This document shows, in pieces, positions 11,929-29,219 of a stretch of DNA of 33,771 nucleotides. The translations under genes were made by a program, and so were the position numbers. The notes under the pieces were generated by a model. The model was not told the DNA's origin. It saw nothing but the letters and a program-made list of their open reading frames with translations, and did no database searches. The stretch spans positions 1 through 33,771 of the forward strand of contig JBEKTG010000001.1 in the NCBI GenBank assembly GCA_049516275.1, in the 5' to 3' direction. This stretch comes from Candidatus Acidiferrales bacterium (GTDB lineage Bacteria > Acidobacteriota > Terriglobia > Acidiferrales > UBA7541). Position 1 is the first letter of the stretch. Every line of letters begins with the position of its first letter.

Positions 11929-12377
11929 ACCTGGGAAACCTCTCCTCCTCACGCAGTCCTTATCGCATATGTGCCCAGAACGAAACGGTATTACAAACAC
12001 TTCGAAAACGAATCTTGATCACGGTTCCTCGCTTTTGAAACGGACGGTTCGGCTGCGAAAATACTCTCTAAACGCTCTGTTCGAGCAAGGTTTAATGCCT
12101 TGAACGGTCAACCCTTTCCGGGCGGAGCCTTGGGGCCGGTATCACTTTCTGCTGTTGCCTCTCTTGCTCACCTGCCGCTGGGGTCGTGGAGCATCCGGAT
12201 ATGAGTAGCACGCACGCGAGTACTATCAGTAATAGGTGTACCCCGTTTTCTATTGCTGAGAATTCACTTGTGCCCGACGCCTAGTAACGATAGCCTCGCA
12301 GGATAAATTTCCTCCAATCAATAGAAGGTTTCGACCCTGGTGTCGGCTCTGTTGCGTAGAGCCGTTGTCTACGTGCG

Positions 12378-15300
12378 TTGGTGCCGCAGGCGTGCAACGC
12401 GAAGTTCATGCTGCTTAGCGGGGGTATCGTCATAAGCGCAAGCGCGGGATGCGGCTTTGCCGGCCAGACCAAGATACTTCGCCTCTGGGTTCACCTCAGC
12501 CTGGCGGCGGTGTGGTTCTTCCTGTGCTGCACGTTCGCTTCGGCTCAAACGCAGCCGGTGCAATCCTACGATTTGAATACGTATGTCCCCACGTTGGAAG
12601 GGCAGTGGGAGGGGATTCGCTATGCGTCGGATGGGAACGTTTATTTTGCGAGTTCCACGCAGGATGCGCACCACGGCGCTGCTTTTTTCAAATTTAATCC
12701 CAACACGAATCAGCTCACCGTCCTCGCTCCGGACATCACCGTAATTTGCGGCGAAGATCCGTACACGAATCCGCAAGGCAAGATTCACAGTGACATCGTC
12801 GAGGCGAATGGCTGGCTTTACTTCTCGACGCACTTTGCCAGCGACCTTCCTGGCGCCTACACCACCTGGACCGGATCGCACTTGATCGGTTATCAGCTGT
12901 CGACAGGGAACTTTCGCGACTTCGGAGTGATTTATCCCAACTACGATTCCTACTCCGCAGTTGGCGTTGATCCGGTGCGGAATTACATCTACGTTTTTGT
13001 AACCGGCGAGAGCGCCGGCCAAGTGTCCTACATTTTTCGCTTCGATGCAGCGACTGGCGCAAAAACCAATCTCGGCCAAGTCGGGGGAGAGTTTGCCGCC
13101 TGTTTGTGGATGTTCGTGGACCAGCGGGGTGACGCGTGGTTCTCTCCGCAATACGGGAACGGCGTTTTGTACCGGGTGGAAGGTGCCACGGGCAACATCG
13201 ATGTTTATCAAAATGAGTTGCCGCCGAACTATCTCTGGAATGAAAACGAGATCGATCCAAGCAGCAGCGATCAGGCAGGGCGCTACATCCAGTGGATGCA
13301 GCCGCTCGATGGTAATCGCGCTGTTTTCTCACTGGGCGGCGGCATGCTCTATATGTTCGACTCCAGCAAGGTGATCGGCTCCGGCCTGGAATTCACGAAC
13401 ATCCAGTGGATTGGCTACAACTACATCGGCATGGCCGTGGGCAATAATCGCGTCTTTTGGTACCAGCGGGCCAACAACGGTTACGGCCATCAGGGCGACG
13501 ACGCTCCGCCGGGCACTCCGGTCGCAGACTTTCACCTCATGAGCGTCTCGCTCGATCCCGCAACTGGCTACGCGATCACCGACCACGGCCTCATTCAGGA
13601 CCAGAATGGACGCCTGGTTTGGCGAGTGCCGAGCATGATGACGGACGGGCACTCCCGCGTGTTCATGACCGGCGATTGGTGGCTTAATCCCGGCGATGTC
13701 GGCACTCTCCAATACACCTATACGAATGGCGTCGAGTCCTATGTGCCGCTGGACCGCGGGGAGTTCTTCGCCATGGCTAGTCACGTGATCCAGGATACGC
13801 TCACCATTCAATCGACTCCGGTGGCTGGCGCGCCGATCACCGGCACTGTGACGCAGAATACGAATGCCAGCATACAGCTCGACGACGGGACCGCGGTGAC
13901 CCTCACCGCGCCGGCCACATTCACCTCCGGCAGCAAGGTCTATTCGTTCGGCAATTGGCAATTGAACGGAGTCGCGCAAGTTGGCAATACGATTTCGTTT
14001 CAGCTCAACGCCAATGCTACCGCCATCGCGGTTTACACCTATTCGAGAACTTCCACCGTGGCGGTGACGCCTCCCAGCACGACTTTATATCAAGGCCAAA
14101 CGCAGCAGTTTGCCGCAACCGTGCAGAATGTGCCGAACCAACCGGTGACATGGTCGTTGAGTCCGAATGTTGGAACCTTATCGACTTCGGGGTCTTATGC
14201 GGCACCGGTTGCCATCACCGCAGCCCAGGTCGTAGTTGTAACAGCGACGAGCACAGCCGATTCAACCCAGTCTGCCACTGCGCTCATGCAACTGGAGCCG
14301 CCGGTTTCTGTTTCCGTCGCGCCTGCGACGGCGACGCTTGGCCGCTACCAGCCTCAGCAATTCACCGCTGCTGTGCAGAATTCAACCAATCAATCGGTCG
14401 CCTGGACGATCAGCCCGGCTACCGGAACCATCTCTTCCACGGGTGTTTATCTGGCGCCGTCGACCATTGCCTCGCAAACGACGGTCACCGTAACCGCGAC
14501 CAGTGTTATGGATCCAACGAAGTTTACTGCGTCCGTCGTTACCCTGGTCCCGAGCGCGGACCATTATGTTTCTCCCACCGGTACCCCGGCGGGCGACGGA
14601 AGCATGGGCAATCCCTGGGATTTGCAAACCGCTTTGAATCAGCCGTCATCTGTCGCGCCGGGAGACATCATTTGGCTTCTCGCGGGGACCTACAAAGGCA
14701 ACTTTGTAAGTCTGCTCAACGGAACGGCCACCGCGCCGATCATAGTGCGGAATTTTAGCGGGCAGCGCGCCACTCTCGATGGCAGCGGGTGCGGATTGCT
14801 GGTGCTTACGGTCAACGGTACCTATTCGTGGTTCTGGGGATTGGAGGTCCAGGATTCCGCGGACGACCGCATCGGCTTAGGCGCGTGTCCCGCTTTTGGC
14901 GTCGGAGTATACGGCGGTCCCGGAGACCAGTTCATCAACATGGTCGTGCACGACACCGGTGAGGGCTTCAGTGCCTACAACGCGTCTCCGAGCTCCGAGT
15001 TTTACGGAAATATCGTTTACTACAACGGTTTCGTAGGCCCCACCCGCAATATGGGCCACGGGATGTATTTTCAGAACAGCACCGGGACGAAGGTCGTTGC
15101 GAATAACTTCGTCGGGGACAATGCGTTTGAAGGCATTCAAATCTATGGTAGCGGCACGGCATCCATCGTTGGTTTCAACGTAACCGGCAACACTTTGTAC
15201 GATACAGATTCGTGGCCTACTCCCAATTACCAGTACAACCTGATCATCGCCGGCGGCGCGGAGCGCCAGAATATCCAGGTGGAGAACAATTACAGCTACT

Positions 15301-18300
15301 TCCCCTCCACGGCGACCACGGGCTACGTCAACGTGGGCCAGTACACGCCGGGCCTGGACGCAACCATAACAAACAATGTTTTTGCCGGCGGCTACTCGGG
15401 CTTCAGCATGGACGGGCAGACCGGACCGGTGGTGTTCACGGGAAACGTGGTTTCCACCAACCCGGCTTCGCCGGCGACGGTCGGGATCGGGTTGTTCAGC
15501 GGGCAAAATTTCGCCGACTATGTGTGGAACAACAACACCTACTACGGCGGGGATGTCTTCTCCACAGCCGGCTACGACGGAAACAACTTTTCCGGCATTC
15601 AATACCTGACGTTCCAGGGCTGGCAGTCGTCGACAGGATTTGACTCCAATAGCACTTTTACCCCGAGCGCTCCCACGGGATCGTGGGTCTATGTGCAGCC
15701 CAATAATTACGAACCCAAGCGCGCCAATATCACGGCCTATAACTGGAACTCGGCTGCGAGCGTCAGTGCGAGCCTGTCGGGAATCCTCAGTCCCGGCGAC
15801 CAGTATGTGATCCAGGATGCGCAGAATTTTTACGGGCCGCCAGTGGCCGGCGGCATATACGCCGGGGGTTTGACGACCATCCCGATGGTTGGCTTGCCCA
15901 AGGCCGCGCCCCTTGGATTCCCGGCGCCGGCGCACACGGCGCCACAGTTTGGCACCTTCGTGGTGATGACCACCACGTCGCTCTCGCCCGTGGGGCTTTC
16001 GCCCGTCGTGGTGACGCTCCATCAAGGCCAGTCGCAAACATTTACCGCGGTAGTGCTGAACTCGCCCGGGCAAGCGGTCAACTGGTCGATCAGCCCGCAG
16101 GTAGGGAGCATTTCCAGCGCGGGTGTTTACGCTGCGCCCGCTGCGGTCGCAACGACTCAGGTGGTCACCCTTACGGCCACCAGCACCGCGGACTCAACTA
16201 AATTCGGCACCGCGACGATCACTTTGGTGAGCACTGCGAATGTAGCTTTCGTGGGTACGGACGCTCTGACGAAAGGCAATTGGCAGAATGTCTACGGAGC
16301 GAACGGATATTCCCTCGCGAACGGTCCCCAGAGCCTTCCGCCCTACGATTCGGCCTTCACGGTCCAGGGCCAGTCGAACTACACGTGGACGTCTAATACC
16401 ACCGACGTGAGGGCGCTGCAGAACGGCGCGATGCGGCTGGCGGCGGCATGGTACAGCGCCACGACCTTCAGTTTCGACGTCAATCTTACCGATGGCAACA
16501 CACACCAGATTTCGCTCTACGCGCTCGATTGGGACAACTATGGCGGCGGAAGAACGGAAAAGGTGCAGGTCATCGACGTAGGAACAAACACTGTTCTGGA
16601 CACTCGCACGATTTCCGCTTTCAACAACGGGATCTACCTGGTCTGGAATATATCGGGGCACGTAAAGATCCTCGTCACCAACACCGGATCGAACGCCGTG
16701 CTGAGCGCGGTGTTCTTCGACCCGGTGTCTACCGGTAAGATCACGCCGACGATCACGTGGACCACGCCGGCGCCCATCGCGCAGGGCATCGCGCTTAGCG
16801 CCACACAGCTGGATGCGGTGGCGACCGTAAGCGGGACGTCCATCGCAGGCACCTTCGCCTATAACCCAGCCGCGGGTGCCGTGCTCGGCTCCGGGACCCA
16901 AACGCTGTCCGTGACGTTCAATCCCAGTGACACGACGGATTACCAGGCGGCGAGCGCCACCGTCACGCTGACCGTGAATCCGGGCGCGCCTAGCGCGCAG
17001 GCGAGCTTTGTTGGCTCCGATACCACCACGCAGGGAAGCTGGAGGGTCAAGTACGGAGCAGATGGATTTGCCATTGCGAACGACTCTCAGAGCCTTCCCA
17101 GCTATGATCCGACTTTTGCGCCGGCGGGACAGTCGAACTACACGTGGGCCAGTTCCACGACCGACCCCCGGGCGCTGCAGAACGGCGCGAACACGGGAAG
17201 AATCGCGGCGACATGGTTCAGCACCTCAAGCTTCAGCTGTGACGTCAATTTGACCGATGGAAAGACGCATCAGGTCGCGCTGTACGCGGTGGATTGGGAC
17301 AACTACGGCGGACGCGCCGAAAACGTGCAGATACTGGACGCGGGAACAGGAACGTCGCTTGACCAGCGCAGCATTTCGCAGTTTGTTAACGGCGTCTACC
17401 TGATCTGGAGCATCTCCGGGCACGTGAAGATCAACGTCGTGCTGACGGGCGGCGGGAATGCCGTGGTGAGCGGGGTATTCTGGGGCGGGGCGAGCACGAC
17501 GCAGATCACGCCTACTCTTTCCTGGGCCGCCCCGGCTGCGATTACTTACGGGGCTGCGCTGAGCGGTACGCAGTTGAATGCCGCCGCCAGCTACGGGGGG
17601 GCGGGTGTGCCGGGTTCCTACGTTTACACGCCCGCGGCGGGGGCGGTTTTGGGAGCGGGAAGCCAGACGCTATCGGTCACGTTCACCCCGACTGACAACG
17701 TGACTTACAAGCCGGTCAGCACTACCGCTTCGCTGGTGGTGAATCAGGCTGTGCCGGTGATCTCCTGGGCTACGCCGGCCCCGATTACCCAGGGCACTGC
17801 CCTGAGCGGCACTCAACTGGATGCTACGGAGACCGCGAATGGTTCGGCGATCGCCGGGAGTTTTGTCTATACGCCCGCGTTGGGAGCTGTGCTGGGCTCG
17901 GGGAGCCAGACTTTGTCGGTGACTTTTACGCCGTCTGACACCATGGACTATAAGCCGGCTAGTGCGACGGTGATGATTGCCGTCAACGCGGCGGTATCCG
18001 TCAGCGCGCAGGCGAGCTTTGTTGGATTCGACACGGCCACGCAGGGCACCTGGAAGGGGAAATACGGCACCGATGGCGATTCGATCGCTAACGATTCGCA
18101 GAGCCTTCCCGGCTACGCGGCATTTTCAATGCTGAACCAGTCGAACTACACATGGCTACCGAGCTCCACCGATCCGCGCGCGCTGCAGATGGGTAGCGGG
18201 ACCGGAAGAATCGCGGCCACGTGGTTCAGCGCCTCGTCGTTTACGTTCGATGTGAATCTCACGGATGGGGGCACGCACCAGATTGCGTTGTATGCTCTCG

Positions 18301-19274
18301 ACTGGGATACATATCTCGGAGGGCGTGCGGAAACGGTCGCCTTGCAGGACGCGAGCAGCGGCACGGTGCTGGACTCGCGGGCGATTTCCGCATTTACAAA
18401 TGGGATTTATCTGGTGTGGAACGTTTCCGGGCACGTGAAGATCGTGGTCACCAACAGTAAGAGCGGAAACGCCGTGGTGAGCGGAATATTCTTCGGGGCG
18501 GCGCCGCAGACGGCTCCTTCGTTCACAAGCGCTCCGGCGGCGGCGTTCACGATCGGATCGCTGGGAACATTTAACGTCACGGCGGCGGGCAATCCAGCGC
18601 CCTCGATCACCGAGAGCGGAACGCCGCCCAGTTGGTTGAACTTTAACCCGACTACGGGCGCGCTGAGCGGAACGCCGCCGAGCGGAACCAACGGGATGTA
18701 CACTCTGATGTTCAGCGCGAGCAACGGCGTCGGAGCGAATGCTTCGCAGACGTTCACTTTGACGGTGAACTTGGCCCCGGCGGGCGCCACGGCAAGCTTC
18801 CAGGGAACCGACACAGCGACGCAGGGGAACTGGCAGGGCAAGTATGGCGGAACTGGGTACTCGCTGGCGAACGGGCCGCAGAGCCTTCCGAGCTTCGATC
18901 CTACTTTTTCGGTTTCGGGCGGGTCGAACTACACTTGGGCGTCGGGCACGGCCGATGTGCGGGCGCTGCAGGACGGGTCGGGAAGGCTGGCGGCGACCTG
19001 GTTTAGCGCGACCAACTTTAGCTTCGACATAAACCTCACGGATGCCAACACGCACCAGGTGGCTCTGTACGCGCTGGATTGGGACAACTACCTCGGCGGC
19101 CGGGCCGAGGTGGTGCAGGTGATGGACGCGAACAGCGGAGCCACGCTGGACACCGAATCGATCTCCGCATTTACCAACGGAATTTACCTCGTATGGAATG
19201 TCTCGGGGCACATCAAGATCGTGGTTACGGTGAGCAGGGGAAACGCCGTGATCAGCGGCGTCTTCTTCAAATAA
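12378..19274 (+). CDS. Giant secreted multidomain protein 1 (about 2290 aa). Order: signal peptide, beta-propeller-like head, beta-sandwich, 2x Big_2, right-handed beta-helix, Big_2, then [A module / Ig-like spacer] x4
   Basis: Single uninterrupted 6.9-kb frame. Signal peptide KILRLWVHLSLAAVWFFLCCTFASA/QTQ. The track start is GTG 12378 and the first ATG is 12408. Domain order was read directly from the translation (see the sub-features). The protein ends with an A-module copy (NAVISGVFFK-stop). Confidence 0.93.
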   Translation: MVPQACNAKFMLLSGGIVISASAGCGFAGQTKILRLWVHLSLAAVWFFLCCTFASAQTQPVQSYDLNTYVPTLEGQWEGIRYASDGNVYFASSTQDAHHGAAFFKFNPNTNQLTVLAPDITVICGEDPYTNPQGKIHSDIVEANGWLYFSTHFASDLPGAYTTWTGSHLIGYQLSTGNFRDFGVIYPNYDSYSAVGVDPVRNYIYVFVTGESAGQVSYIFRFDAATGAKTNLGQVGGEFAACLWMFVDQRGDAWFSPQYGNGVLYRVEGATGNIDVYQNELPPNYLWNENEIDPSSSDQAGRYIQWMQPLDGNRAVFSLGGGMLYMFDSSKVIGSGLEFTNIQWIGYNYIGMAVGNNRVFWYQRANNGYGHQGDDAPPGTPVADFHLMSVSLDPATGYAITDHGLIQDQNGRLVWRVPSMMTDGHSRVFMTGDWWLNPGDVGTLQYTYTNGVESYVPLDRGEFFAMASHVIQDTLTIQSTPVAGAPITGTVTQNTNASIQLDDGTAVTLTAPATFTSGSKVYSFGNWQLNGVAQVGNTISFQLNANATAIAVYTYSRTSTVAVTPPSTTLYQGQTQQFAATVQNVPNQPVTWSLSPNVGTLSTSGSYAAPVAITAAQVVVVTATSTADSTQSATALMQLEPPVSVSVAPATATLGRYQPQQFTAAVQNSTNQSVAWTISPATGTISSTGVYLAPSTIASQTTVTVTATSVMDPTKFTASVVTLVPSADHYVSPTGTPAGDGSMGNPWDLQTALNQPSSVAPGDIIWLLAGTYKGNFVSLLNGTATAPIIVRNFSGQRATLDGSGCGLLVLTVNGTYSWFWGLEVQDSADDRIGLGACPAFGVGVYGGPGDQFINMVVHDTGEGFSAYNASPSSEFYGNIVYYNGFVGPTRNMGHGMYFQNSTGTKVVANNFVGDNAFEGIQIYGSGTASIVGFNVTGNTLYDTDSWPTPNYQYNLIIAGGAERQNIQVENNYSYFPSTATTGYVNVGQYTPGLDATITNNVFAGGYSGFSMDGQTGPVVFTGNVVSTNPASPATVGIGLFSGQNFADYVWNNNTYYGGDVFSTAGYDGNNFSGIQYLTFQGWQSSTGFDSNSTFTPSAPTGSWVYVQPNNYEPKRANITAYNWNSAASVSASLSGILSPGDQYVIQDAQNFYGPPVAGGIYAGGLTTIPMVGLPKAAPLGFPAPAHTAPQFGTFVVMTTTSLSPVGLSPVVVTLHQGQSQTFTAVVLNSPGQAVNWSISPQVGSISSAGVYAAPAAVATTQVVTLTATSTADSTKFGTATITLVSTANVAFVGTDALTKGNWQNVYGANGYSLANGPQSLPPYDSAFTVQGQSNYTWTSNTTDVRALQNGAMRLAAAWYSATTFSFDVNLTDGNTHQISLYALDWDNYGGGRTEKVQVIDVGTNTVLDTRTISAFNNGIYLVWNISGHVKILVTNTGSNAVLSAVFFDPVSTGKITPTITWTTPAPIAQGIALSATQLDAVATVSGTSIAGTFAYNPAAGAVLGSGTQTLSVTFNPSDTTDYQAASATVTLTVNPGAPSAQASFVGSDTTTQGSWRVKYGADGFAIANDSQSLPSYDPTFAPAGQSNYTWASSTTDPRALQNGANTGRIAATWFSTSSFSCDVNLTDGKTHQVALYAVDWDNYGGRAENVQILDAGTGTSLDQRSISQFVNGVYLIWSISGHVKINVVLTGGGNAVVSGVFWGGASTTQITPTLSWAAPAAITYGAALSGTQLNAAASYGGAGVPGSYVYTPAAGAVLGAGSQTLSVTFTPTDNVTYKPVSTTASLVVNQAVPVISWATPAPITQGTALSGTQLDATETANGSAIAGSFVYTPALGAVLGSGSQTLSVTFTPSDTMDYKPASATVMIAVNAAVSVSAQASFVGFDTATQGTWKGKYGTDGDSIANDSQSLPGYAAFSMLNQSNYTWLPSSTDPRALQMGSGTGRIAATWFSASSFTFDVNLTDGGTHQIALYALDWDTYLGGRAETVALQDASSGTVLDSRAISAFTNGIYLVWNVSGHVKIVVTNSKSGNAVVSGIFFGAAPQTAPSFTSAPAAAFTIGSLGTFNVTAAGNPAPSITESGTPPSWLNFNPTTGALSGTPPSGTNGMYTLMFSASNGVGANASQTFTLTVNLAPAGATASFQGTDTATQGNWQGKYGGTGYSLANGPQSLPSFDPTFSVSGGSNYTWASGTADVRALQDGSGRLAATWFSATNFSFDINLTDANTHQVALYALDWDNYLGGRAEVVQVMDANSGATLDTESISAFTNGIYLVWNVSGHIKIVVTVSRGNAVISGVFFK
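12546..13787 (+). other. Domain: beta-propeller-like head of giant protein 1
   Basis: Repeated blade-like strands: DGNVYFASS, NGWLYFSTHF, NYIYVFVTGE, YIFRFDAATG, GVLYRVEGATG, GMLYMFDSS, NRVFWYQRA, SRVFMTGDWW. No specific family was recognised. Confidence 0.5.
14043..14555 (+). repeat. Two tandem Big_2-like (bacterial Ig-like group 2) domains
   Basis: VAVTPPSTTLYQGQTQQFAATVQNVPNQPVTWSLSPNVGTLSTSGSYAAP...VTATS, and VSVAPATATLGRYQPQQFTAAVQNSTNQSVAWTISPATGTISSTGVYLAP...VTATS. Confidence 0.8.
14556..15975 (+). other. Domain: right-handed parallel beta-helix (pectate-lyase fold) with C-terminal beta-sandwich
   Basis: Typical opening HYVSPTGTPAGDGSMGNPWDLQTALN...VAPGDIIWLLAGTYKG. Coil repeats follow: INMVVHDTGEG, GNIVYYNG, ANNFVGDN, TGNTLYD, VENNYSY, ITNNVFAGG, FTGNVVS, WNNNTYYG. 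Confidence 0.8.
15999..16232 (+). repeat. Big_2-like domain
   Basis: SPVVVTLHQGQSQTFTAVVLNSPGQAVNWSISPQVGSISSAGVYAAPAAVATTQVVTLTATSTADSTKFGTATITLVS. Confidence 0.8.
16233..16721 (+). repeat. A-module copy 1 (163 aa, unassigned Trp-rich module)
   Basis: TANVAFVGTDALTKGNWQNVYGANGYS...QSNYTWTSNTTDVRALQ...AAAWYSATTFSFDVNLTDGNTHQISLYALDWDNYGGGRTE...GIYLVWNISGHVKILV...NAVLSAVFFD. Confidence 0.9.
16740..16982 (+). repeat. MBG/YG-type Ig-like repeat (1 copy, 81 aa)
   Basis: ITPTITWTTPAPIAQGIALSATQLDAVATVSGTSIAGTFAYNPAAGAVLGSGTQTLSVTFNPSDTTDYQAASATVTLTVNP. Confidence 0.75.
16992..17486 (+). repeat. A-module copy 2 (165 aa)
   Basis: SAQASFVGSDTTTQGSWRVKYGADGFA...QSNYTWASSTTDPRALQ...RIAATWFSTSSFSCDVNLTDGKTHQVALYAVDWDNYGGRAE...GVYLIWSISGHVKINV...GNAVVSGVFWG. 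Confidence 0.9.
17505..17987 (+). repeat. MBG/YG-type Ig-like repeats (2 copies)
   Basis: ITPTLSWAAPAAITYGAALSGTQLNAAASYGGAGVPGSYVYTPAAGAVLGAGSQTLSVTFTPTDNVTYKP..., and AVPVISWATPAPITQGTALSGTQLDATETANGSAIAGSFVYTPALGAVLGSGSQTLSVTFTPSDTMDYKP... Confidence 0.75.
18003..18497 (+). repeat. A-module copy 3 (165 aa)
   Basis: SAQASFVGFDTATQGTWKGKYGTDGDS...QSNYTWLPSSTDPRALQ...RIAATWFSASSFTFDVNLTDGGTHQIALYALDWDTYLGGRAE...GIYLVWNVSGHVKIVV...GNAVVSGIFFG. Confidence 0.9.
18513..18770 (+). other. Domain: putative Ig domain (He_PIG / dystroglycan-type cadherin-like)
   Basis: APSFTSAPAAAFTIGSLGTFNVTAAGNPAPSITESGTPPSWLNFNPTTGALSGTPPSGTNGMYTLMFSASNGVGANASQTFTLTVN. The LPxGLxxNxxTGxxSGTP pattern is characteristic of this domain. 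Confidence 0.75.
18783..19271 (+). repeat. A-module copy 4 (163 aa); forms the C-terminus of giant protein 1
   Basis: GATASFQGTDTATQGNWQGKYGGTGYS...GSNYTWASGTADVRALQ...RLAATWFSATNFSFDINLTDANTHQVALYALDWDNYLGGRAE...GIYLVWNVSGHIKIVV...GNAVISGVFFK-stop. Confidence 0.9.
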
Positions 19275-19701
19275 TTCAGCTGAAACTTGGCGGGAACGGG
19301 CGCTTTTAGGCAGCCATCTTGAGTGCGCGGATGGTGTTAGTGTGTCGGGTAGCGAGTACACCGGCTGTTTGTTTTGTTTTGCTTACGCTTGGTTTTACCT
19401 GATACCCCTGCTGTCCAAGTTGGGCTCACCAAGAAAATCGCCTCTCAACGCAAATCGTCGCAGAGTTCCACCGCCTCTCAAAAGCCAATTTGGACAAGAG
19501 CGAATGTTGCTGCATTACGCAAACGTCGATGGGTTGTCCTTGCTTTCTTGGTTGGGAGGCCTTAGTAAGGTTTCGTGGCACAGAGATGATTTTAGTTCCG
19601 CGATGAAGGGCCGGCACCGCGCCTTTTCCCCTCCGTGGGTGTCCGGTTATGAATGGGCAAGATCTAGAAACCTGCGAGACACATGGAGCGAAAAGTCTGT
19701 G

Positions 19702-22700
19702 ATGAGCGATCCATTTCGGGTGCTTCGCGGCGGCTGGCTCTGCATCTTGTTGATGATGGGGGCGGCTAACCTCAACGCTCAATCCGGAGGGCAGGTTCTC
19801 TATAATGGCATCGCCCTCCCCCAGCAATGGCCGCCGGTGGGAGGGCCGAGCCAGAATTACAATGTTCCTTCCTATATCACCAATCCTCCTGCCGTCATTC
19901 CCATAAATACCGGACGCCAACTGTTCGTCGATGACTTCCTAATTCAATCGACCACGTTGACGCGGACGCAGCACCAGCCGCTGATGTATCCCGGCAACCC
20001 TATCCTGACCCCGGGTTCTTCGGATACGACGGGGAACGCATTCCCTTATAGCGATGGCGTCTGGTTCGATCCAGCCACGGACCAGTTCAGGATGTGGTTC
20101 TACTGTGGAGCGGGAAACATGGTTTGTTATGCCTACTCCACAGATGGCAAGAGCTGGATTAAGCCTGCCCTGGCAAACGCGGTAACTCCCAATACGGATC
20201 AAGTGCTGGAAATTTCCCCGGCGCGCGACTCCGGCACCGTGTGGATGGACCTGGCCGACCCGAATCCGGCGCGGAAATTCAAGGCATTCATCTTCAATGG
20301 GTACGGAATCGTTGTGTACTTCTCGCCGGACGGGATCAGCTGGACTCAGCAGAGCCAGTCCCAGTATCCCGTCGGTGTGATCGACGATCGGACCACACTG
20401 TTCTGGAATCCGTTCCGGAATGTGTGGGTTGATAGCATAAAAAACTATCTTCCTCTCCCGGCTTCGGGGAGCCGTCCTGGCTACACCAGCCGCGTGCGCT
20501 ATTATGCGGAAAGTCCGGATCTGACGACCTGGACGCCCGCAGATTTTACCGACAGCTTCTGGACCGGGCCGGACGTGAACGATCCGCCATACGTCACCGG
20601 AGGACTGTACCCGCAGCTCTACAACCTGGACGCGGTCGCTTATGAAAGCGTGATCGTCGGGCTGTTCAGCTGGTATTACCCAGGACCGGCATACCCCTCC
20701 GACGATCCGAGCGGGTTGCCGGGGCCGGCGCTGGTGGAACTGGGAGCCGGGTTCAGCCGCGACGGATTTCAGTGGGTGCGTCCGACGCGGGGCAGTGGAC
20801 CCAGCAACGCCTTCATTCCGGCGTCGAACCTGTCGGGAACCTGGAACATGGGCGATACGCAGTCGGCGGGCGGGGGGTTCCTCGTCGTGGGCGATGAGCT
20901 GTGGTTCTATTTCAGTGGACGCAACGGCCCGCACGGCGTTAGTACCGTCGGGGCGACCGGTCTGGCGACATTGAGGCGCGACGGCTTTTACTCGATGGAT
21001 GCGGGTTCGACGCAGGCCGAGTTGACCACGCGTCCTGTGCAGTTCGCCGGCAACTACATGTTCGTCAATGTGAACGATCCCAGCGGTCAACTGCTGGTGG
21101 AAGTCACCGACACCAGTGGCAACGTGATCGCGCCTTACTCGAAGGCTAATTGCGTTCCGCTGAGCGTTAACAAAACGCTCCAGCAGGTTAACTGGAATGG
21201 CGCCACCGATCTTTCGAGTTTGGCGGGCCAGTCGGTGCGGTTCAATTTCTACCTCACGTCCGGAAGTCTGTACTCGTTCTGGGTGACTTCGAGCCTGTCC
21301 GGCGCGAGCAATGGATACGTTGCCGCGAATGGCCCCGGCTTTACCGGCCCGACGGATAATCAAGGCAGCGCTGCGTATCCCACCACCGTTGCCACGCCGG
21401 AGATCATTCCAGCCGGCGCGTTATTCAACAATTCCACCACCGTCACCCTTTACACCGGAACAGCGGGAGCTACCATCAACTACACGCTCGATGGTAGCCC
21501 CCCCACGGCGCTATCGCCGGTCTATACGGCGCCGTTTTCGTTGACGGCCAGCGCTACAGTCAAAGCCGTGGCCTCGGCTGCTCATATGACGACCAGTGCT
21601 ACCGCTTCGGCGGCCTTCACCAGGAATAACACCCCTCCCACTATTTCGCTCACATCCCCCGCGAATGGCCAGAGCTTGTTCGGAGCCATCACGCTATCGG
21701 CGAGTGCATCGGACGTGTTGGGAATTGCAAGCGTGCAGTTTCTCGTCGATGGAGTTTCCGTAGGAACCGTCGCCAGCGCGCCCTACACCCTGGCATTCGA
21801 TACCGCCACGTTGGCCAACACGACTCACCAGATCACTGCTGTCGCGGTTGACACGGCGGGCAACCCGGCAACTTCCAGCCCCGTGACAGTGACATTTAAC
21901 AATGTGGTCAGCGGACCGACCAGCGGGTTGGTAGGTTACTGGAGCTTCGACTCCGCCTATACGATCGGCTCGACCGTGTTCGACCAGTCCGGCAACAGCG
22001 GCAACGCTACAGCCTACTCGACTACATCCGTGCCCGGCGAAGTAGGGCAGGCACTGCAGTTCAACGGTTCCTCCAGCTATGCGCAAGTTGTTACCGGTTC
22101 CCAGGCATACGATCTTCTGAGTAATTTGAGCCTGTCTCTATGGGTACAAACCACCAATGCGAGCCGCGACGAAGCGCTGGTCAGCAAATATTCAGCGGCA
22201 GGATCGGGGTATGGCTACCTGTTGCGAACCACACCGGCCGGAACGGCGGAGCTTCTGGTTGGCGGCGCCAACGTGATATCCGGACCCGAAGTTGCTACGG
22301 ATGTGACGAAAATCAATGATGGCAACTGGCATCACCTTGCAGTCGTAATTCAATTGGGAACCAGTGTGACCTTTTATGTGGATGGCGTGCTGAGTTCAAT
22401 CGTGACCATGAATTCCGGGGCCGGCGCGGCCGCCACGTGGTTTCAGATGGGCTTGAACCCATGGTCTCCCTTCGGCACTTTCTTTACCGGCAGCATGGAC
22501 GAGGTGCGGGTTTACAACCGCGCTCTGTCCGCCAGCGACGTGCTTGCTTTGGCCGGGCCGGTGGTCGTGTCGCCCCGAAGCGCGACGCTGGTCCAGGGCC
22601 AGACCCAGCAATTCACAGCAATCGTAAAGGGCGTAACAAACCAGTCTGTGAACTGGTCCATGAGCGGGACAACGGGAAGCGTTTCGTCCGCGGGGCTTTA

Positions 22701-25563
22701 TACGGCTCCCGCCAGTGTTGCGAACAGCCAGACAATCAACGTAACGGCGACCAGTGTTGCAAACTCGTCTCTATCCGGCACGGCAACCGTTTCTCTGGTT
22801 TCCGGTGTAGCTGCTACTACGAGCTTCGTTGGATTCGATACGGTCACCCAAGGCAGTTGGCACGGAGTCTATGGAGGTGATGGGTATTCCGTGGCCGGCG
22901 ACTCGCAGAGTATTCCCTCCTACGCTACGCTTGCCGTTCAAAACCAGTCGAACTATACCTGGGCTTCCAGCACGACCGATCCACGCGCTCTGCAAACCGG
23001 CAGCAACTCGGGAAGAATCGCAGCGACCTGGTACAGCTATACAACCTTCAATTTCGACGTCAATCTCGGGGACGGAAACACTCATAGGGTTGCGCTCTAT
23101 GCCTTGGATTGGGATAACTATGGCGGAGGCAGGGCGGAGCAAATTCAGATTGTCGACGCGACCACCGGCAGCGTGCTCGATACCCGCAACATTTCGAGTT
23201 TCACGCAAGGGGTTTATCTTGTTTGGAACATTTCCGGCCACGTCAAAATCAACGTCATGTTGACGGGCGGCGGGAACGCGGTCGTCAGCGGAGTTTTCTT
23301 CGGCGGCAGTGGCGTCACTCAAAGCGCGCCGACGATTACGTGGGCGGCTCCTGCTGCCCTCACTTACGGGACCACGCTCGGCGGCACGCAGCTTGATGCG
23401 GCGGCCAGTTTCAACAACGCTGCGGTGCCGGGCAGTTTTGTCTACACGCCCGCAGCCGGCACGGTACTAACGGCTGGAAGCCACACGCTGTCGGCGACCT
23501 TCACTCCCACCGATACGATTCATTACACAACGGCCACAGCCACGGCCAGTATCATCGTCAATCAGGCTACGCCTGCCATCGCCTGGGCGGCACCTGCTGC
23601 CATCACTTACGGTACGGCGCTCAGCAGCACACAACTCGATGCGTCGGCTAGTTTCAACAACGCAACGGTGCCGGGCAACTTTGCTTATACGCCGGCATCC
23701 GGCACGATTCTCGGGGTGGGGAGCCAGACTCTTTCCGTCCTGTTCACGCCTACGGATACGACCGACTACAAGGCGGCGAGTTCTTCGGTCACGCTGGTAG
23801 TCACCAATCAAAACATCCCGGCCATTAATTGGCCAGCTTCCGCGGCCGTCACGTACGGCACCCCGCTCGGCGTCACGCAACTCGATGCGACGGCCAGTTT
23901 CAACGGCGCAACGGTGCCGGGCAGCTCTGTCTACACGCCCGCGGTCGGCACATTGCTGACGGCTGGAAGCCACACGCTGTCGGTGACATTCACTCCCACC
24001 GATACCACTCACTACGCGACGGTGACGGCTACGGTCGGCATAACCGTGAATCAAGCCGCGCCCACTATCACCTGGGCGACACCTTCGTCCATCTCCTATG
24101 GCACGGCACTCAGCAGCACCCAGCTGGATGCGTCGGCTAGTTTCAACAGCTCAACGGTGCCCGGCAATTTTGCCTATACGCCGCTGGCCGGCACGATTCT
24201 CTCGGGAGGAAACCAAACTCTGTCGGTCACTTTCACTCCTACGGATATGACGGACTACAAGGGGGCGACGGCCGCGGTCACGATTGTAGTTACGACTTCG
24301 GGCACGCCGTCGAGCCAGGCTACCTTCGTTGGCGCTGATACGGTCACGCAAGGCAATTGGCACGGCGTCTATGGAGGAGACGGCTATTCAGTAGCCGGGG
24401 ACTCACAGAGTATTCCGTCTTATGCGGCTTTCTCCATCCAAAATCAGTCGAACTATACATGGTCTTCCACCACGACCGATCCGCGGGCTCTGCAAACCGG
24501 CAGCAACCTGGGAAGAATCGCGGCAACCTGGTTTAACGGCGCAGCTTTCAACTTCAATATCAATCTGACTGACGGCAACACCCATCAGGTTGCGCTCTAT
24601 GCTCTGGACTGGGATAACTATGGCGGAGGAAGAGCGGAGCAAATTCAGATAGTCGACGCGGCGAGCAGCACCGTGCTCGATACCCGCACGATTTCCAGCT
24701 TCACTCAGGGCATTTATCTGGTTTGGGACATTTCCGGCAACGTCAAAATCAACATCACACTCACGGGCGGTGGCAACGCGGTTATCAGCGGTGTATTTTT
24801 GGGAAGCACCGCCATTGGAGTCGGCGTGAATCCGCCGAGCGTCACCCTCGCTGGCGGGCAAGCGCAGCAGTTCACAGCCCAAGTGACAGGCACTTCGAAT
24901 AAAACCGTGACGTGGTCCATCAGCCCGGCATCGGGAAGCATTTCGGCCACCGGCCAATACGCGGCTCCCGCGACAATCTCGAACGCCCAGACGGTGACCG
25001 TAACCGCCACGAGCGCCGCGAGCGGCACCGCTTTTGGCACAGCAACGGTCCAGTTGAGCACCGCCGCAGGCGCCATCGCGAGCTTCACGGGCTTCGACAC
25101 GGCTACTCAAGGCAACTGGAAAGGAGTCTACGGAGCGGACGGATACTCCATCGCCAACAGTTCCCAGAGTCTCCCCGCCTATGCTTCGGCGTTTGCGGCG
25201 CAGAATCAGTCGAACTATACCTGGGCTTCCGGCACCATCGATCCGCGGGCCCTGCAAACCGGCAGCGGCTCGGGAAGAATTGCGGCGACGTGGTTCAGCG
25301 GCACGACATTCAATTTTCTTCTCAATCTCACTGACGGAAACACGCATCGGGTCGCGGTATATGCCCTGGATTGGGACAACTACGGCCGATCGGAAACCAT
25401 TCAGGTTCTCGACGCCGCGACGAACGCCGTCCTGGACAGCCGCAGCATTTCCGCCTTCACGCAGGGAGTCTATCTGGTTTGGAATATTTCCGGCAACGTC
25501 AAGATCAACGTAACGACAACCGGCGGCCTGAATTCGGTGGTCAGCGGAGTGTTTTTCAAATAA
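19702..25563 (+). CDS. Giant secreted multidomain protein 2 (about 1953 aa). Order: signal peptide, GH32/43-clan-like propeller plus beta-sandwich, CHB_HEX_C-like, Ig-like, LamG, Big_2, A, 4x MBG, A, Big_2, A
   Basis: The frame is open from GTG 19342, but ATG 19702 (GGAG 14 nt upstream) starts a canonical signal peptide MSDPFRVLRGGWLCILLMMGAANLNA/QSGG. Domain order was read from the translation. The protein ends with an A-module copy (NSVVSGVFFK-stop). Confidence 0.93.
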   Translation: MSDPFRVLRGGWLCILLMMGAANLNAQSGGQVLYNGIALPQQWPPVGGPSQNYNVPSYITNPPAVIPINTGRQLFVDDFLIQSTTLTRTQHQPLMYPGNPILTPGSSDTTGNAFPYSDGVWFDPATDQFRMWFYCGAGNMVCYAYSTDGKSWIKPALANAVTPNTDQVLEISPARDSGTVWMDLADPNPARKFKAFIFNGYGIVVYFSPDGISWTQQSQSQYPVGVIDDRTTLFWNPFRNVWVDSIKNYLPLPASGSRPGYTSRVRYYAESPDLTTWTPADFTDSFWTGPDVNDPPYVTGGLYPQLYNLDAVAYESVIVGLFSWYYPGPAYPSDDPSGLPGPALVELGAGFSRDGFQWVRPTRGSGPSNAFIPASNLSGTWNMGDTQSAGGGFLVVGDELWFYFSGRNGPHGVSTVGATGLATLRRDGFYSMDAGSTQAELTTRPVQFAGNYMFVNVNDPSGQLLVEVTDTSGNVIAPYSKANCVPLSVNKTLQQVNWNGATDLSSLAGQSVRFNFYLTSGSLYSFWVTSSLSGASNGYVAANGPGFTGPTDNQGSAAYPTTVATPEIIPAGALFNNSTTVTLYTGTAGATINYTLDGSPPTALSPVYTAPFSLTASATVKAVASAAHMTTSATASAAFTRNNTPPTISLTSPANGQSLFGAITLSASASDVLGIASVQFLVDGVSVGTVASAPYTLAFDTATLANTTHQITAVAVDTAGNPATSSPVTVTFNNVVSGPTSGLVGYWSFDSAYTIGSTVFDQSGNSGNATAYSTTSVPGEVGQALQFNGSSSYAQVVTGSQAYDLLSNLSLSLWVQTTNASRDEALVSKYSAAGSGYGYLLRTTPAGTAELLVGGANVISGPEVATDVTKINDGNWHHLAVVIQLGTSVTFYVDGVLSSIVTMNSGAGAAATWFQMGLNPWSPFGTFFTGSMDEVRVYNRALSASDVLALAGPVVVSPRSATLVQGQTQQFTAIVKGVTNQSVNWSMSGTTGSVSSAGLYTAPASVANSQTINVTATSVANSSLSGTATVSLVSGVAATTSFVGFDTVTQGSWHGVYGGDGYSVAGDSQSIPSYATLAVQNQSNYTWASSTTDPRALQTGSNSGRIAATWYSYTTFNFDVNLGDGNTHRVALYALDWDNYGGGRAEQIQIVDATTGSVLDTRNISSFTQGVYLVWNISGHVKINVMLTGGGNAVVSGVFFGGSGVTQSAPTITWAAPAALTYGTTLGGTQLDAAASFNNAAVPGSFVYTPAAGTVLTAGSHTLSATFTPTDTIHYTTATATASIIVNQATPAIAWAAPAAITYGTALSSTQLDASASFNNATVPGNFAYTPASGTILGVGSQTLSVLFTPTDTTDYKAASSSVTLVVTNQNIPAINWPASAAVTYGTPLGVTQLDATASFNGATVPGSSVYTPAVGTLLTAGSHTLSVTFTPTDTTHYATVTATVGITVNQAAPTITWATPSSISYGTALSSTQLDASASFNSSTVPGNFAYTPLAGTILSGGNQTLSVTFTPTDMTDYKGATAAVTIVVTTSGTPSSQATFVGADTVTQGNWHGVYGGDGYSVAGDSQSIPSYAAFSIQNQSNYTWSSTTTDPRALQTGSNLGRIAATWFNGAAFNFNINLTDGNTHQVALYALDWDNYGGGRAEQIQIVDAASSTVLDTRTISSFTQGIYLVWDISGNVKINITLTGGGNAVISGVFLGSTAIGVGVNPPSVTLAGGQAQQFTAQVTGTSNKTVTWSISPASGSISATGQYAAPATISNAQTVTVTATSAASGTAFGTATVQLSTAAGAIASFTGFDTATQGNWKGVYGADGYSIANSSQSLPAYASAFAAQNQSNYTWASGTIDPRALQTGSGSGRIAATWFSGTTFNFLLNLTDGNTHRVAVYALDWDNYGRSETIQVLDAATNAVLDSRSISAFTQGVYLVWNISGNVKINVTTTGGLNSVVSGVFFK
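19786..21288 (+). other. Domain: five-bladed-propeller glycoside-hydrolase-like head plus C-terminal beta-sandwich (GH32/43/68-clan-like, family not assigned)
   Basis: GRQLFVDDFLI...GNPILTPG...SDGVWFDPATDQFRMWFYCG...YAYSTDGKSWIKP...GIVVYFSPDGISWTQ...DELWFYFSG...ATLRRDGFYSMDAG...LLVEVTDTSGNVIAPYS...LAGQSVRFNFYLTSGSLYSFWV. This resembles GH32-type propeller plus jelly-roll proteins. Confidence 0.65.
21391..21621 (+). other. Domain: chitobiase/beta-hexosaminidase C-terminal-like (CHB_HEX_C_1-like) Ig fold
   Basis: ATPEIIPAGALFNNSTTVTLYTGTAGATINYTLDGSPPTALSPVYTAPFSLTASATVKAVA. Confidence 0.65.
21904..22557 (+). other. Domain: LamG / concanavalin-A-like lectin (Laminin_G_3-like)
   Basis: GLVGYWSFDS...VFDQSGNSGNATAY...GQALQFNGSSSYAQV...LSLSLWV...NDGNWHHLAVV...VTFYVDGVL...FTGSMDEVRVYNRALSASDV. 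Confidence 0.8.
22558..22809 (+). repeat. Big_2-like domain
   Basis: PVVVSPRSATLVQGQTQQFTAIVKGVTNQSVNWSMSGTTGSVSSAGLYTAPASVANSQTINVTATS. Confidence 0.8.
22810..23304 (+). repeat. A-module copy 5 (165 aa)
   Basis: AATTSFVGFDTVTQGSWHGVYGGDGYS...QSNYTWASSTTDPRALQ...RIAATWYSYTTFNFDVNLGDGNTHRVALYALDWDNYGGGRAE...GVYLVWNISGHVKINV...GNAVVSGVFFG. Confidence 0.9.
23326..24300 (+). repeat. Four tandem MBG/YG-type Ig-like repeats (80-82 aa each) in an A-B-A-B pattern
   Basis: Unit boundaries are 23326-23565, 23566-23811, 23812-24054 and 24055-24300. Units 1 and 3 share ...AGSHTLS.TFTPTDT.HY.T.TAT..I.VNQ. Units 2 and 4 share ...YGTALSSTQLDASASFN..TVPGNFAYTP..GTIL..G.QTLSV.FTPTD.TDYK. Confidence 0.85.
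24310..24804 (+). repeat. A-module copy 6 (165 aa)
   Basis: SSQATFVGADTVTQGNWHGVYGGDGYS...QSNYTWSSTTTDPRALQ...RIAATWFNGAAFNFNINLTDGNTHQVALYALDWDNYGGGRAE...GIYLVWDISGNVKINI...GNAVISGVFLG. Confidence 0.9.
24814..25068 (+). repeat. Big_2-like domain
   Basis: IGVGVNPPSVTLAGGQAQQFTAQVTGTSNKTVTWSISPASGSISATGQYAAPATISNAQTVTVTATS. Confidence 0.8.
25069..25560 (+). repeat. A-module copy 7 (164 aa); forms the C-terminus of giant protein 2
   Basis: GAIASFTGFDTATQGNWKGVYGADGYS...QSNYTWASGTIDPRALQ...RIAATWFSGTTFNFLLNLTDGNTHRVAVYALDWDNYGRSE...GVYLVWNISGNVKINV...LNSVVSGVFFK-stop. Confidence 0.9.
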
Positions 25564-27387
25564 CTATGGACCGAAAGCCAGGAGTACGTTTCCGGGGACG
25601 CTTGCTCCAACGACGTAACCTGAACCCACGAAAAGCATTCCACCGGCGACGACTGGGCCCGGGCCTGCCATGGAACCTCCTTTTGCCGCGACACCATTCA
25701 CCGTCTTGAATTCGCGCACCGTGTCATATTCCCAAATGCGCTGGCCATTCTTGGTGGAGTAGGCACGCAGGATGCCGTCCCATCCCCCGGAGAATATGAC
25801 CGCTGGAATACCGGTAACGGCTGCGGTCTGTCCTCTTACATGGGTGGAATTATGATCGTCGTCCTCAGTTGCAAACCACTTTTTGCTGCCCGTCGCGAGG
25901 TTTATGGCGGCGACTCCTCCATCTTTTAGACCAAAATAGGCGGCTTGGTCATCCGCGGCGCCGCCGAATGTGATTTCCCCGGGCGCCAGGGTGTCCGAAA
26001 GTTGAGTCTTCCAGACGACAGCGCCCATCCGGCTGGCGTCGTGTGCCCAAACAACCCCGCTTTTCTGACCGGCAATCAGAATCCTGCGTCCATCCGGCAG
26101 CACTTTCAAAATCGGGGAGGAGCCGAAGTCAAAGTCGGGACCCAATTTTGCCGGACAGTTTCCACTGGCGTATCCAGGACGGCAGGCATATAGCCAGACA
26201 TCACCTCCAGTATCTTGCACCGACCAGATGACTTTCCCGGTGTACATGTCGAGGGCCATGACGGCATCGATGGTATTGGGCGCCGGTTCGGTATAGGAAT
26301 CTCCGGTGCCGATATAAATGGCGTGAGCCTGGGCGTCGACCGTGGGGGAATCCCAGACTCCTCCGCCGGCGGGTGCCCAGCGCTGTGCTCCATTCGGAGT
26401 TTTGCCGGCGAGTTTGGGCTGATCGGGTATTACATAGGTCTTCCAGATTTGCTTGCCCGTGCCGGCGTCAAGGGCGGCGACGCTGCCTCGAAAGGTGCAA
26501 CAGGGGTAGTTTACGCCAAGGCCGGCCACCCATTCTTCGATCGAGGCAACCGGTACATATAAACGATCGCGATATAACGCCGGTGAGCCGGTGATTCGCG
26601 CGACGGGATTGTCCTCGATTTTTACCTTCCAGAGCAGCTTGCCGCTGCGAGCATCGAGTTTGTACAAGTTCGCTTTGATGTCACCGAAATAAACAGCAAA
26701 TTTTGAAAGGTCTTTGCCCTTGACCGGAGCGATGCTGATCGCGTTGCGCACTCCAGCATCCGCTTCAAACGACCAATACACGCAGCCCGTTCTTGCATCG
26801 AGCGAATACACCATCCCGGTATCGACACCAATGAAGACGCGGCCGGCCCAGACGCTCGGCTGCCCGTACACCGCTTCGACATCGGGAAAGCCGAAGGCCC
26901 ATTTAAGCTTCAGTTGCGGAACCTGATCCGGGAGTAACCCCGCGGCTCGTGCCGGTTGAAACCGCGAGTTCGCCGTGTCGGCACCCCAGCCGCTCCACTC
27001 CGGATCGAATTGGCCGGATCGCAGAGCGGGATTGCTTGTGCATCGATTCGCTCCAGGTGTGGCGCTCGCTCCTTTGGCCAGCCTCACCTTACGGCCCCCC
27101 AGGTACTCGGCAATCGAAAGCTTTTCATTTTCGGGAATGTTTTGAATCGACGTGTGCGCCGGGAGCTTCGCGATAGCGCTATAAACCGCCTCTGGTGACA
27201 TTTTCAGAAGTTGCAGATCGTCGGGGATATTGTTCCGGCGGCTCGAATTCTCATGGCAGGTGGCGCAGTGCCGCTCGTACAGACGCAGGTTGGGCGCCAG
27301 TTGACCGAATGCAGGGGCGGTGAAGGAAAGCAGTATCAGAGCCACCGTCACCAAGGACGAAAGAAGGGCTCCCGTCACGCGAGGCAT
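25564..27387 (-). CDS. Quinohemoprotein-type dehydrogenase: N-terminal cytochrome c domain plus PQQ-repeat beta-propeller (polyvinyl-alcohol-dehydrogenase-like arrangement)
   Basis: Signal peptide MPRVTGALLSSLVTVALILLSFTAPAFG, then the heme c motif CATCH. PQQ-type repeats LDARTGCVYWSF, LDARSGKLLWKV, LDAGTGKQIWKT, LDMYTGKVIWSV, INLATGSKKWFA and YSTKNGQRIWEY. A vicinal Cys pair NYPCCTFRG resembles the Cys-Cys ring of quinoprotein alcohol dehydrogenases. The track start is TTG 27405 and the first ATG is 27387. Confidence 0.85.
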   Translation of the reverse strand: MPRVTGALLSSLVTVALILLSFTAPAFGQLAPNLRLYERHCATCHENSSRRNNIPDDLQLLKMSPEAVYSAIAKLPAHTSIQNIPENEKLSIAEYLGGRKVRLAKGASATPGANRCTSNPALRSGQFDPEWSGWGADTANSRFQPARAAGLLPDQVPQLKLKWAFGFPDVEAVYGQPSVWAGRVFIGVDTGMVYSLDARTGCVYWSFEADAGVRNAISIAPVKGKDLSKFAVYFGDIKANLYKLDARSGKLLWKVKIEDNPVARITGSPALYRDRLYVPVASIEEWVAGLGVNYPCCTFRGSVAALDAGTGKQIWKTYVIPDQPKLAGKTPNGAQRWAPAGGGVWDSPTVDAQAHAIYIGTGDSYTEPAPNTIDAVMALDMYTGKVIWSVQDTGGDVWLYACRPGYASGNCPAKLGPDFDFGSSPILKVLPDGRRILIAGQKSGVVWAHDASRMGAVVWKTQLSDTLAPGEITFGGAADDQAAYFGLKDGGVAAINLATGSKKWFATEDDDHNSTHVRGQTAAVTGIPAVIFSGGWDGILRAYSTKNGQRIWEYDTVREFKTVNGVAAKGGSMAGPGPVVAGGMLFVGSGYVVGASVPGNVLLAFGP

Positions 27388-27413
27388 CTGCGCCGGGGTA
27401 TCCAAGGCGCGGC

Positions 27414-29160: not shown

Positions 29161-29219
29161 TTTGACGTTACCAACAGTGGAGCGTGCACTCCAAGATGCA
29201 AGCTGTAACCGTAACTGGC

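Follow-up and report, generated by a model that had tools for sequence, protein, structure and literature searches.

SLH, CWB2, GW and choline-binding repeats are non-catalytic modules which occur in tandem, often at the end of a protein, and retain functionally unrelated secreted enzymes of one organism on a surface polymer. Carbohydrate-binding modules (CBMs) of the families CBM61 (TmCBM61, PDB 2xom/2xon), CBM35, CBM6, CBM22 and CBM32 are all-beta sandwiches, also non-catalytic, which are found on secreted enzymes and are often repeated. Cohesins of scaffoldins are beta-sandwich modules of about 150 amino acids (aa) in long tandem arrays, sometimes beside a dockerin, while the receptor-binding domains of binary toxins, such as C. 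perfringens iota toxin Ib (9jsh/9jsl) and C. difficile CDTb (receptor-binding domain RBD1, 9mdi/9mui), are CBM-like jelly rolls for target recognition. The subject of this study is a tryptophan-rich module of 163-165 aa, which is present in seven copies in two adjacent genes of Candidatus Acidiferrales bacterium, on a 33,771-nucleotide stretch of DNA (GenBank assembly GCA_049516275.1, contig JBEKTG010000001.1, positions 1 to 33,771), hereafter called the window. The module is best described as a new sequence family of known fold and kind, because none of the sequence-level searches that were run assigned it to an existing family, while its predicted fold is a jelly roll of the CBM6/35/61 type.

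In its tandem, often terminal occurrence on unrelated enzymes and its presumed lack of catalysis, the module may be regarded as an analogue of the SLH, CWB2, GW and choline-binding repeats; however, their folds and sequences are unrelated to it, and its hosts are mostly diderm Acidobacteriota and Planctomycetota. The CBM families named above, which it resembles in size and all-beta build, are its best Foldseek matches in the PDB (E 1e-4 to 3e-3, probability about 1.0; 2xom at E 1.2e-4). They differ from it in having no detectable sequence relationship (TM score 0.38-0.45, 11-18% identity), and the module exceeds them by 20-35 residues, has long ordered loops and sits on heads that are mostly not carbohydrate-active enzymes (CAZymes). 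The binary-toxin domains reach the highest TM scores of any solved structure (0.48-0.51, root-mean-square deviation (rmsd) 4.3-5.1 Å over about 150 columns), but share only 7-10% identity, belong to toxins, and occur in single or double copies rather than in long C-terminal arrays. Cohesins gave no sequence match and are not among the top fold matches, and most module proteins have no dockerin.

Seven module copies in two adjacent genes

Both host genes are giant and lie next to each other on the + strand. Each codes for a predicted secreted protein, and in each the last module directly precedes the stop codon. A first-pass annotation, made from the letters of the window alone, had placed seven module copies in them. 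A hidden Markov model (HMM) of the module was built from 43 family members and run on both proteins and on all six reading frames of the whole window. It returned seven full-length matches, at 213-250 bits (domain E 1e-67 to 1e-79), whose boundaries are identical to those of the annotation. The same search found no further copies in the window. The seven copies are:

16233-16721, + strand: module copy 1, gene 1 aa 1286-1448, 218 bits, profile positions 2-163
16992-17486, + strand: module copy 2, gene 1 aa 1539-1703, 239 bits
18003-18497, + strand: module copy 3, gene 1 aa 1876-2040, 237 bits
18783-19271, + strand: module copy 4, gene 1 aa 2136-2298 (protein end), 213 bits
22810-23304, + strand: module copy 5, gene 2 aa 1157-1321, 250 bits; the copy modelled by AlphaFold2
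24310-24804, + strand: module copy 6, gene 2 aa 1657-1821, 243 bits; 79% identical to copy 5
25069-25560, + strand: module copy 7, gene 2 aa 1910-2073 (protein end), 240 bits

When translated, the seven intervals give segments of 163-165 aa that align nearly gap-free, with a mean column identity of 78% and 61 invariant columns. The ordered motif blocks that had been read from the sequence are present in all seven copies, and most of them also hold across 742 modules of the wider family (G-x-W in 100%, YG in 96-99%); the five tryptophans that had been called invariant are W17, W52, W73, W100 and W138 of the seven-copy alignment. The copies share 61-79% protein identity (61-66% with copy 1), with the gene 2 copies forming the closest set (71-79% among the three). 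Pairwise DNA identity among them is only 62-79%, and Tandem Repeats Finder reported no DNA repeat; therefore, the copies are ancient and not recent duplicates.

Two other Acidobacteriota metagenome-assembled genomes (MAGs) have contigs collinear with the locus, at 96.3% and about 94% nucleotide identity, so that it is no assembly artefact. Gene 1 is collinear at 96.3% with a contig of an Acidobacteriaceae MAG (L001), while in the second MAG (L002/L003) the gene 2 ortholog adjoins the gene 1 ortholog. Consequently, a recent DNA duplication or an assembly artefact as the source of the repeats is ruled out by the DNA identity of the copies, the lack of a tandem repeat and the conservation of the locus in these MAGs. 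The ratio of nonsynonymous to synonymous substitution rates (dN/dS), calculated by NG86 for the window genes against their orthologs in the two MAGs, was 0.095 in the modules of gene 1 compared with 0.172 in the remainder of the protein, and 0.154 compared with 0.149 in gene 2. Purifying selection on the modules therefore equals or exceeds that on the remainder of the proteins.

Domain catalogues and literature

The module had been noted as matching no Pfam family, and this was borne out by Pfam-A (24,736 models, 2025), in which neither whole protein had a match over its modules and the seven copies had none at E <= 10. With 43 diverse modules at the same threshold, no consistent family emerged, only scattered single matches at E > 0.001, and seven very divergent modules from Chloroflexia, Verrucomicrobiota, Omnitrophota and Ktedonobacterales were assigned to no Pfam-A family. 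NCBIfam release 20.0 returned nothing for the module copies or for both whole proteins. Profile searches of all PDB sequences with two alignments (A1 and A2) returned nothing, or only synaptotagmin C2 at E >= 0.13, an identity that was dismissed as noise. As well, a full-text literature search (new CBM families, Acidobacteria, Planctomycetes, dockerin) found no description of the module.

Several candidate families were considered and rejected. Membership in CBM61, CBM35 or CBM6 by sequence was discarded, as the PDB profile searches gave no such match, and the Pfam galactose-binding-domain-like families (CBM_6, CBM_35-type, F5_F8_type_C, NPCBM and P_proprotein) gave no consistent match at E <= 10; NPCBM, CBM_6 and P_proprotein do occur in some member proteins, but as separate domains. 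Por_Secre_tail (E 0.11) and PPC (E 0.09-0.3) matched at noise level only, and the module is repeated and often internal. Judged by sequence, the module is a large bacterial domain family absent from the catalogues searched (Pfam, NCBIfam and PDB sequences).

The names under which homologs are deposited, including 'hypothetical protein', 'serine protease', 'PQQ-dependent sugar dehydrogenase', 'dockerin...' and 'TAP-like protein', are uninformative. The last of these refers to Abhydrolase_4 (PF08386), which was rejected, since the module covers only profile positions 44-78 of 103, and weakly, and its predicted fold is all-beta. In Aquisphaera giovannonii QEH36754.1 (P0121), 12 weak PF08386 matches within aa 541-2548 sum to 80 bits against a cutoff of 21 bits, and no single stretch is significant; hence the public name 'TAP-like protein' of this protein appears to be an additive artefact of its 12 repeats. 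The same partial match was found in three other members (P0012, P0126 and P0127).

Predicted fold

AlphaFold2, run on the 43-sequence alignment, modelled copy 5 as 12 beta-strands with no helix (predicted local distance difference test, pLDDT, 97.7; predicted TM score, pTM, 0.93), which bears out the beta-sandwich that had been proposed from the sequence. A Foldseek search of the PDB with this model gave 12 matches at E <= 1e-3, and among the 50 best matches the galactose-binding-domain-like jelly rolls, above all those of CBM and receptor-binding type, dominate with Foldseek probabilities of 0.9-1.0. These matches include CBM61, CBM35, CBM22, CBM32, CBM6, CBM16, CBM51, malectin, Cry toxin domain III and IFT25, at TM scores of 0.38-0.51, rmsd of 4-7 Å and 7-18% identity. 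Phage tail-fibre and minor-tail domains were matched in the viral library BFVD, which agrees with the PDB picture. The model thus indicates a galactose-binding-domain-like jelly roll, in a distant and enlarged version because identity is only 7-18% and TM only 0.38-0.51. The confident single-copy model, the sharp HMM boundaries and the separation of copies by linkers or other domains suggest that the module is a contiguous, independently folding unit. It is presumably non-catalytic, as arrays of up to 12 copies make catalysis unlikely; a catalytic role was rejected on this copy number and on the lack of an enzyme-like fold match among the structures searched.

Family size, distribution and conservation

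The module is less special than the first-pass annotation had made it appear, not being confined to the two window genes. A full HMMER scan of 1.84 billion cluster representatives (50% identity clusters) returned at least 5,698 representatives at E <= 1e-3, of which 2,704 reach E <= 1e-30, so that the module is a widespread building block of a family of thousands. Proteins carry between 1 and 12 copies. Among the 150 best matches, the copies are arranged head-to-tail with gaps of 2-10 aa, or with spacers of about 100 aa or multiples thereof, and the last module ends no more than 6 residues from the C-terminus in 115.

The family occurs in Acidobacteriota, Planctomycetota, Verrucomicrobiota, Chloroflexota, Armatimonadota and others. 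Cultured planctomycetes are among the hosts, with 12 copies in Aquisphaera giovannonii QEH36754.1 (UniProt A0A5B9W8Y8) and 6 in A. insulae WP_165219147.1. A scan of GTDB species genomes, based on patterns from alignment A1 that are narrow and bias the taxonomic picture to close relatives, yielded 39 loci, all in MAGs and mostly in Acidobacteriota (Acidobacteriaceae, Ca. Acidiferrales and Terriglobia); the remaining loci belong to Armatimonadota, Caldimonas, Verrucomicrobiota, Ktedonobacterales, Chloroflexia and Omnitrophota. At least seven module loci, four of them within 47 kb, were found in MAG MFD00082.bin.1.138. Four module loci (L004, L011, L013 and L016) lie within about 47 kb of an Acidobacteriota MAG contig (CAVPVC010000001.1, 109,904-156,284). 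The four clustered loci mirror the two adjacent genes of the window and suggest local gene-family expansion.

Conservation was computed over 742 unique modules from many phyla and set against the secondary structure of the copy 5 model. G14 and W16 are present in 100% of the modules, Y20, G21 and G24 in 96-99%, Y96 and R107 in 99% and D99 in 98%; D9, T12, D56-x-R58, R68, H91, D99-W-D101 and N155 are also among the most conserved positions. Mean identity across phyla is about 50%. Beyond the core hydrophobics, the strongest conservation falls on polar and aromatic residues in ordered loops, which, as far as the model goes, would be expected of a binding or metal site and not of a mere spacer.

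Partner domains

The heads joined to the module are heterogeneous. In Pfam scans of 74 full-length family members, Peptidase_S8 was the commonest enzymatic partner (13/74), often together with a fervidolysin pro-domain or a P-domain, and other heads comprised SBBP, DUF7948 and NHL propellers, NosD/beta-helix, GSDH, arylsulfotransferase, kumamolisin, astacin and FG-GAP. Many Ig-like domains were present, whereas no glycoside hydrolase (GH) or polysaccharide lyase (PL) catalytic Pfam family recurred among the 74. Glycan binders were found as separate domains, namely NPCBM (4), CBM6 (1) and CBM35_2 (1). A dockerin is carried by a minority of members, mostly planctomycetes, and by 4 of the 32 proteins of a second census.

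A protein of about 300 aa with a single C-terminal module was seen in Ktedonobacterales and an unclassified MAG (L030, 5566-6498; L031, 3075-4004). In the Ktedonobacterales protein, a cytoplasmic segment is followed by one transmembrane helix, a Pro/Thr-rich linker and one module, and from this membrane-anchored minimal protein it follows that the module works alone, outside the cell.

Proposed role

With a probability of about 0.6, we regard the module as a non-catalytic, multivalent ligand-binding module, probably glycan-binding, by which exoproteins are tethered to a matrix or surface. That it binds at all, that its ligand is a glycan and that its role is tethering are what we infer from established features, namely the fold class, the loop-centred conservation, the purifying selection, the repeat in tandem and mostly terminal arrays, and the sharing of the module by diverse, unrelated heads across a large and widely distributed family. 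From the fold class and the conservation pattern, the ligand would most probably be a glycan. Arrays of 1-12 copies, head-to-tail or with Ig-like spacers of about 100 aa, would in most cases close Sec-secreted proteins at the C-terminus and might hold any attached head, be it a subtilase, a GH32/43-like propeller, a beta-helix or a pyrroloquinoline quinone (PQQ) or sugar dehydrogenase, on an insoluble polymer near the cell. This polymer could come from the producer itself, as exopolysaccharide or envelope glycan, or be a polysaccharide common in the environment. Having four and three copies, respectively, the two exoproteins of the window would gain avidity for one and the same ligand.

Several observations weigh against this reading. 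The structural likeness to CBMs is weak, given the TM, rmsd and identity values reported above, and jelly rolls serve in protein-protein recognition too. The partner heads are mostly not carbohydrate-active enzymes, which is atypical for a CBM in the CAZy sense. Moreover, C-terminal placement is not universal outside Acidobacteriota, where modules are also N-terminal or internal, with tails of 260-1900 aa, and the hosts (Acidobacteriota, Planctomycetota, Chloroflexota) have different envelopes, so that one 'own surface glycan' as the ligand of all members is unlikely.

If the module were instead a classical substrate-targeting CBM, it would bind one specific environmental polysaccharide (of plant, fungal or microbial cell walls) and concentrate the enzyme on its substrate. 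This is in keeping with the closest folds (CBM61, CBM35, CBM22, CBM32 and CBM6), with the GH32/43/130-like head of gene 2 and the pectate-lyase-type beta-helix of gene 1 (at a marginal score), with the co-occurring NPCBM, CBM6 and CBM35_2 domains, and with the CAZyme-typical Pro/Thr linkers of Chloroflexia members. Nevertheless, it seems unlikely, as no GH or PL recurs among the 74 members, whose heads are subtilases most commonly, and also dehydrogenases, sulfotransferases and propellers, and one ligand could hardly be the substrate of all those heads. Given the dominance of proteases and other non-CAZyme heads, general tethering or retention accounts for the partner spectrum better than classical substrate targeting does. 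The alternation of modules with Ig-like domains in long extracellular proteins could also be explained by a purely structural spacer or stalk, which extends or rigidifies the exoprotein and has no ligand of its own. Such a role is very unlikely in view of the unusually high conservation across phyla, with invariant Trp, Asp, Arg and His in loops, the dN/dS at or below the level of the enzyme heads, and the membrane-anchored protein, which is essentially a linker plus one module.

The length of the arrays, up to 12 copies as in a scaffoldin, raises protein-protein docking of the cohesin kind, whereby arrays would recruit partners such as dockerin-bearing proteins. A dockerin type I directly before the array in Aquisphaera proteins, the dockerins of the second census and a dockerin carried by a neighbour gene at one further locus (L040) agree with it. 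Yet the module has no Pfam cohesin match, no cohesin is among its 50 best PDB fold matches, although the PDB holds many cohesin structures, and the two window proteins, like most Acidobacteriota members, have no dockerin; dockerin-like domains are, besides, common in non-cellulosomal planctomycete proteins, which counts against this explanation as well, and docking is therefore considered highly improbable. Finally, the terminal modules of both window genes, the 115 of 150 proteins that end with a module, and the frequent presence of the module on subtilases, which often bear cleavable C-terminal domains, bring to mind a sorting or export domain, perhaps cleaved, like PPC or the C-terminal domain of the type IX secretion system (T9SS). 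There is scarcely any chance of this, since the majority of copies lie inside the protein and in repeats, something a sorting signal would not require, modules of other phyla are also N-terminal or internal, the Por_Secre_tail and PPC matches are noise, and terminal and internal copies in the window have no distinct signature.

A more far-reaching form of the tethering reading is offered tentatively and is rather doubtful: soil Acidobacteriota and Planctomycetota might possess a general system for exoenzyme retention, with the module as its recognition unit and as a new lectin or CBM family for their own exopolysaccharide or envelope glycan. If so, C-terminal arrays would immobilise dozens of unrelated enzymes (proteases, glycosidases, lyases and dehydrogenases) in the capsule or biofilm matrix, as a functional counterpart of anchoring by SLH or by T9SS and A-LPS (anionic lipopolysaccharide). 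To our knowledge, no SLH- or T9SS-A-LPS-like anchoring has been described in Acidobacteriota or Planctomycetota.

The two host genes and their surroundings

Apart from the modules, the following features of the two genes were assigned, with boundaries of the open reading frames (ORFs) from the ORF list:

12378-19274, + strand: ORF of gene 1, 2298 aa
14886-15182, + strand: best Pfam stretch of the right-handed beta-helix of gene 1 (PF13229, 23.6 bits, marginal against a gathering cutoff of 25.9)
16824-16979, + strand: Ig-like spacer of about 90 aa between copies 1 and 2 of gene 1 (PF24507, PF15780 and PF22544 matches)
18516-18770, + strand: He_PIG Ig-like domain between copies 3 and 4 of gene 1 (PF05345, 40.5 bits)
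19342-25563, + strand: ORF of gene 2, 2073 aa, opening at GTG 19342
19780-21366, + strand: gene 2 head, predicted five-bladed beta-propeller plus C-terminal beta-sandwich (AlphaFold2, Foldseek)
21409-21606, + strand: CHB_HEX_C_1 of gene 2 (Pfam, 56 bits)
21637-21840, + strand: Big_7 of gene 2 (Pfam, 68 bits)
22066-22542, + strand: Laminin_G_3 (concanavalin-like) of gene 2 (Pfam, 89 bits)
22558-22758, + strand: Big_2 of gene 2 (Pfam, 19.0 bits, below the cutoff of 22.8)

Gene 1 likely starts at ATG 12408, which is followed by a signal-peptide-like hydrophobic stretch that ends in ASAQ. An unassigned N-terminal region, Ig-like domains and the beta-helix then precede the four modules, which alternate with Ig-like spacers and He_PIG. 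The N-terminal region of about 415 aa (12540-13787, aa ~55-470) had no Pfam or PDB sequence match; its recurrent motifs NVYFASS, GWLYFSTH, NYIYVFV and VLYRV suggest a beta-propeller. The beta-helix region (aa ~700-1170) had no PDB sequence match. A protein of equal length (P0185, 2298 aa) was considered as a counterpart of gene 1 and rejected, being a different protein with 35-49% local identity only.

For gene 2, the true start is likely ATG 19702, where a convincing signal peptide, MSDPFRVLRGGWLCILLMMGAANLNAQ, begins in the translation. As the signal peptide begins only there, the roughly 430 bases between the genes (19275-19701) are probably non-coding. The head is followed by CHB_HEX_C_1, Big_7, Laminin_G_3, Big_2, a module, four Ig-like spacers, a module, a Big_2-like domain and the last module. 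Ig-like spacers comparable to that between copies 1 and 2 of gene 1 were matched by Pfam between its copies 2 and 3, and in gene 2 at 23650-23814 and 24139-24297. The flanking domains had been called easily recognisable, which holds for He_PIG and Laminin_G_3, both of which pass the Pfam thresholds; Beta_helix and Big_2 fall just below theirs, and the spacers match Ig-like models of the Ig_CFAP65, HYDIN and ASH type rather than MBG.

The gene 2 head had no Pfam, NCBIfam or PDB sequence match (phmmer in the case of the PDB). Its family comprises more than 6,220 homologs (E <= 1e-5), mostly stand-alone proteins of about 550 aa, a few of which are named 'glycosyl hydrolase family 32'. The AlphaFold2 model of the head (pLDDT 87.9, pTM 0.91) has levanase BT1760, invertases, levan fructotransferase, GH43 and GH130 as its best Foldseek matches (E 1e-9 to 1e-7), and by its predicted fold the head is glycoside-hydrolase-like, with a GH32/GH43/GH130 architecture. 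Together with the marginal beta-helix of gene 1, this agrees with the earlier view that the module is shared by two different heads.

The rest of the window (1-12000 and 25564-33771) contains ordinary housekeeping and metabolic genes with no obvious functional tie to the two exoproteins. Upstream lie a GH15 gene with a trehalase-like N-domain (3837-5705, - strand) and genes for a thiolase, alpha/beta hydrolases and a SpoIIE phosphatase, with a Crp-family regulator (11143-11928, + strand) just upstream of gene 1. A PQQ beta-propeller protein (25564-27405, - strand), PhyH, a methyltransferase, cytochrome b561 and a LuxR-type response regulator are encoded downstream. A tRNA-Pro with anticodon TGG (29846-29922, - strand) is the sole RNA gene detected in the window.

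Biological significance

New beta-sandwich modules in secreted proteins turn up regularly. In soil and peat, Acidobacteriota and Planctomycetota rank among the most abundant bacteria, and most of their very large secreted proteins carry no annotation. The module is one of the commonest building blocks of those proteins, with several loci per genome, is invisible to Pfam and NCBIfam, and appears to have caused a wrong protein name in one cultured species; with a family model, thousands of proteins could be annotated. A new CBM family would be established if the module proves to bind a glycan. Knowing its ligand would reveal by what means these bacteria hold proteases and glycosidases near the cell or the substrate, which bears on soil carbon and nitrogen turnover.

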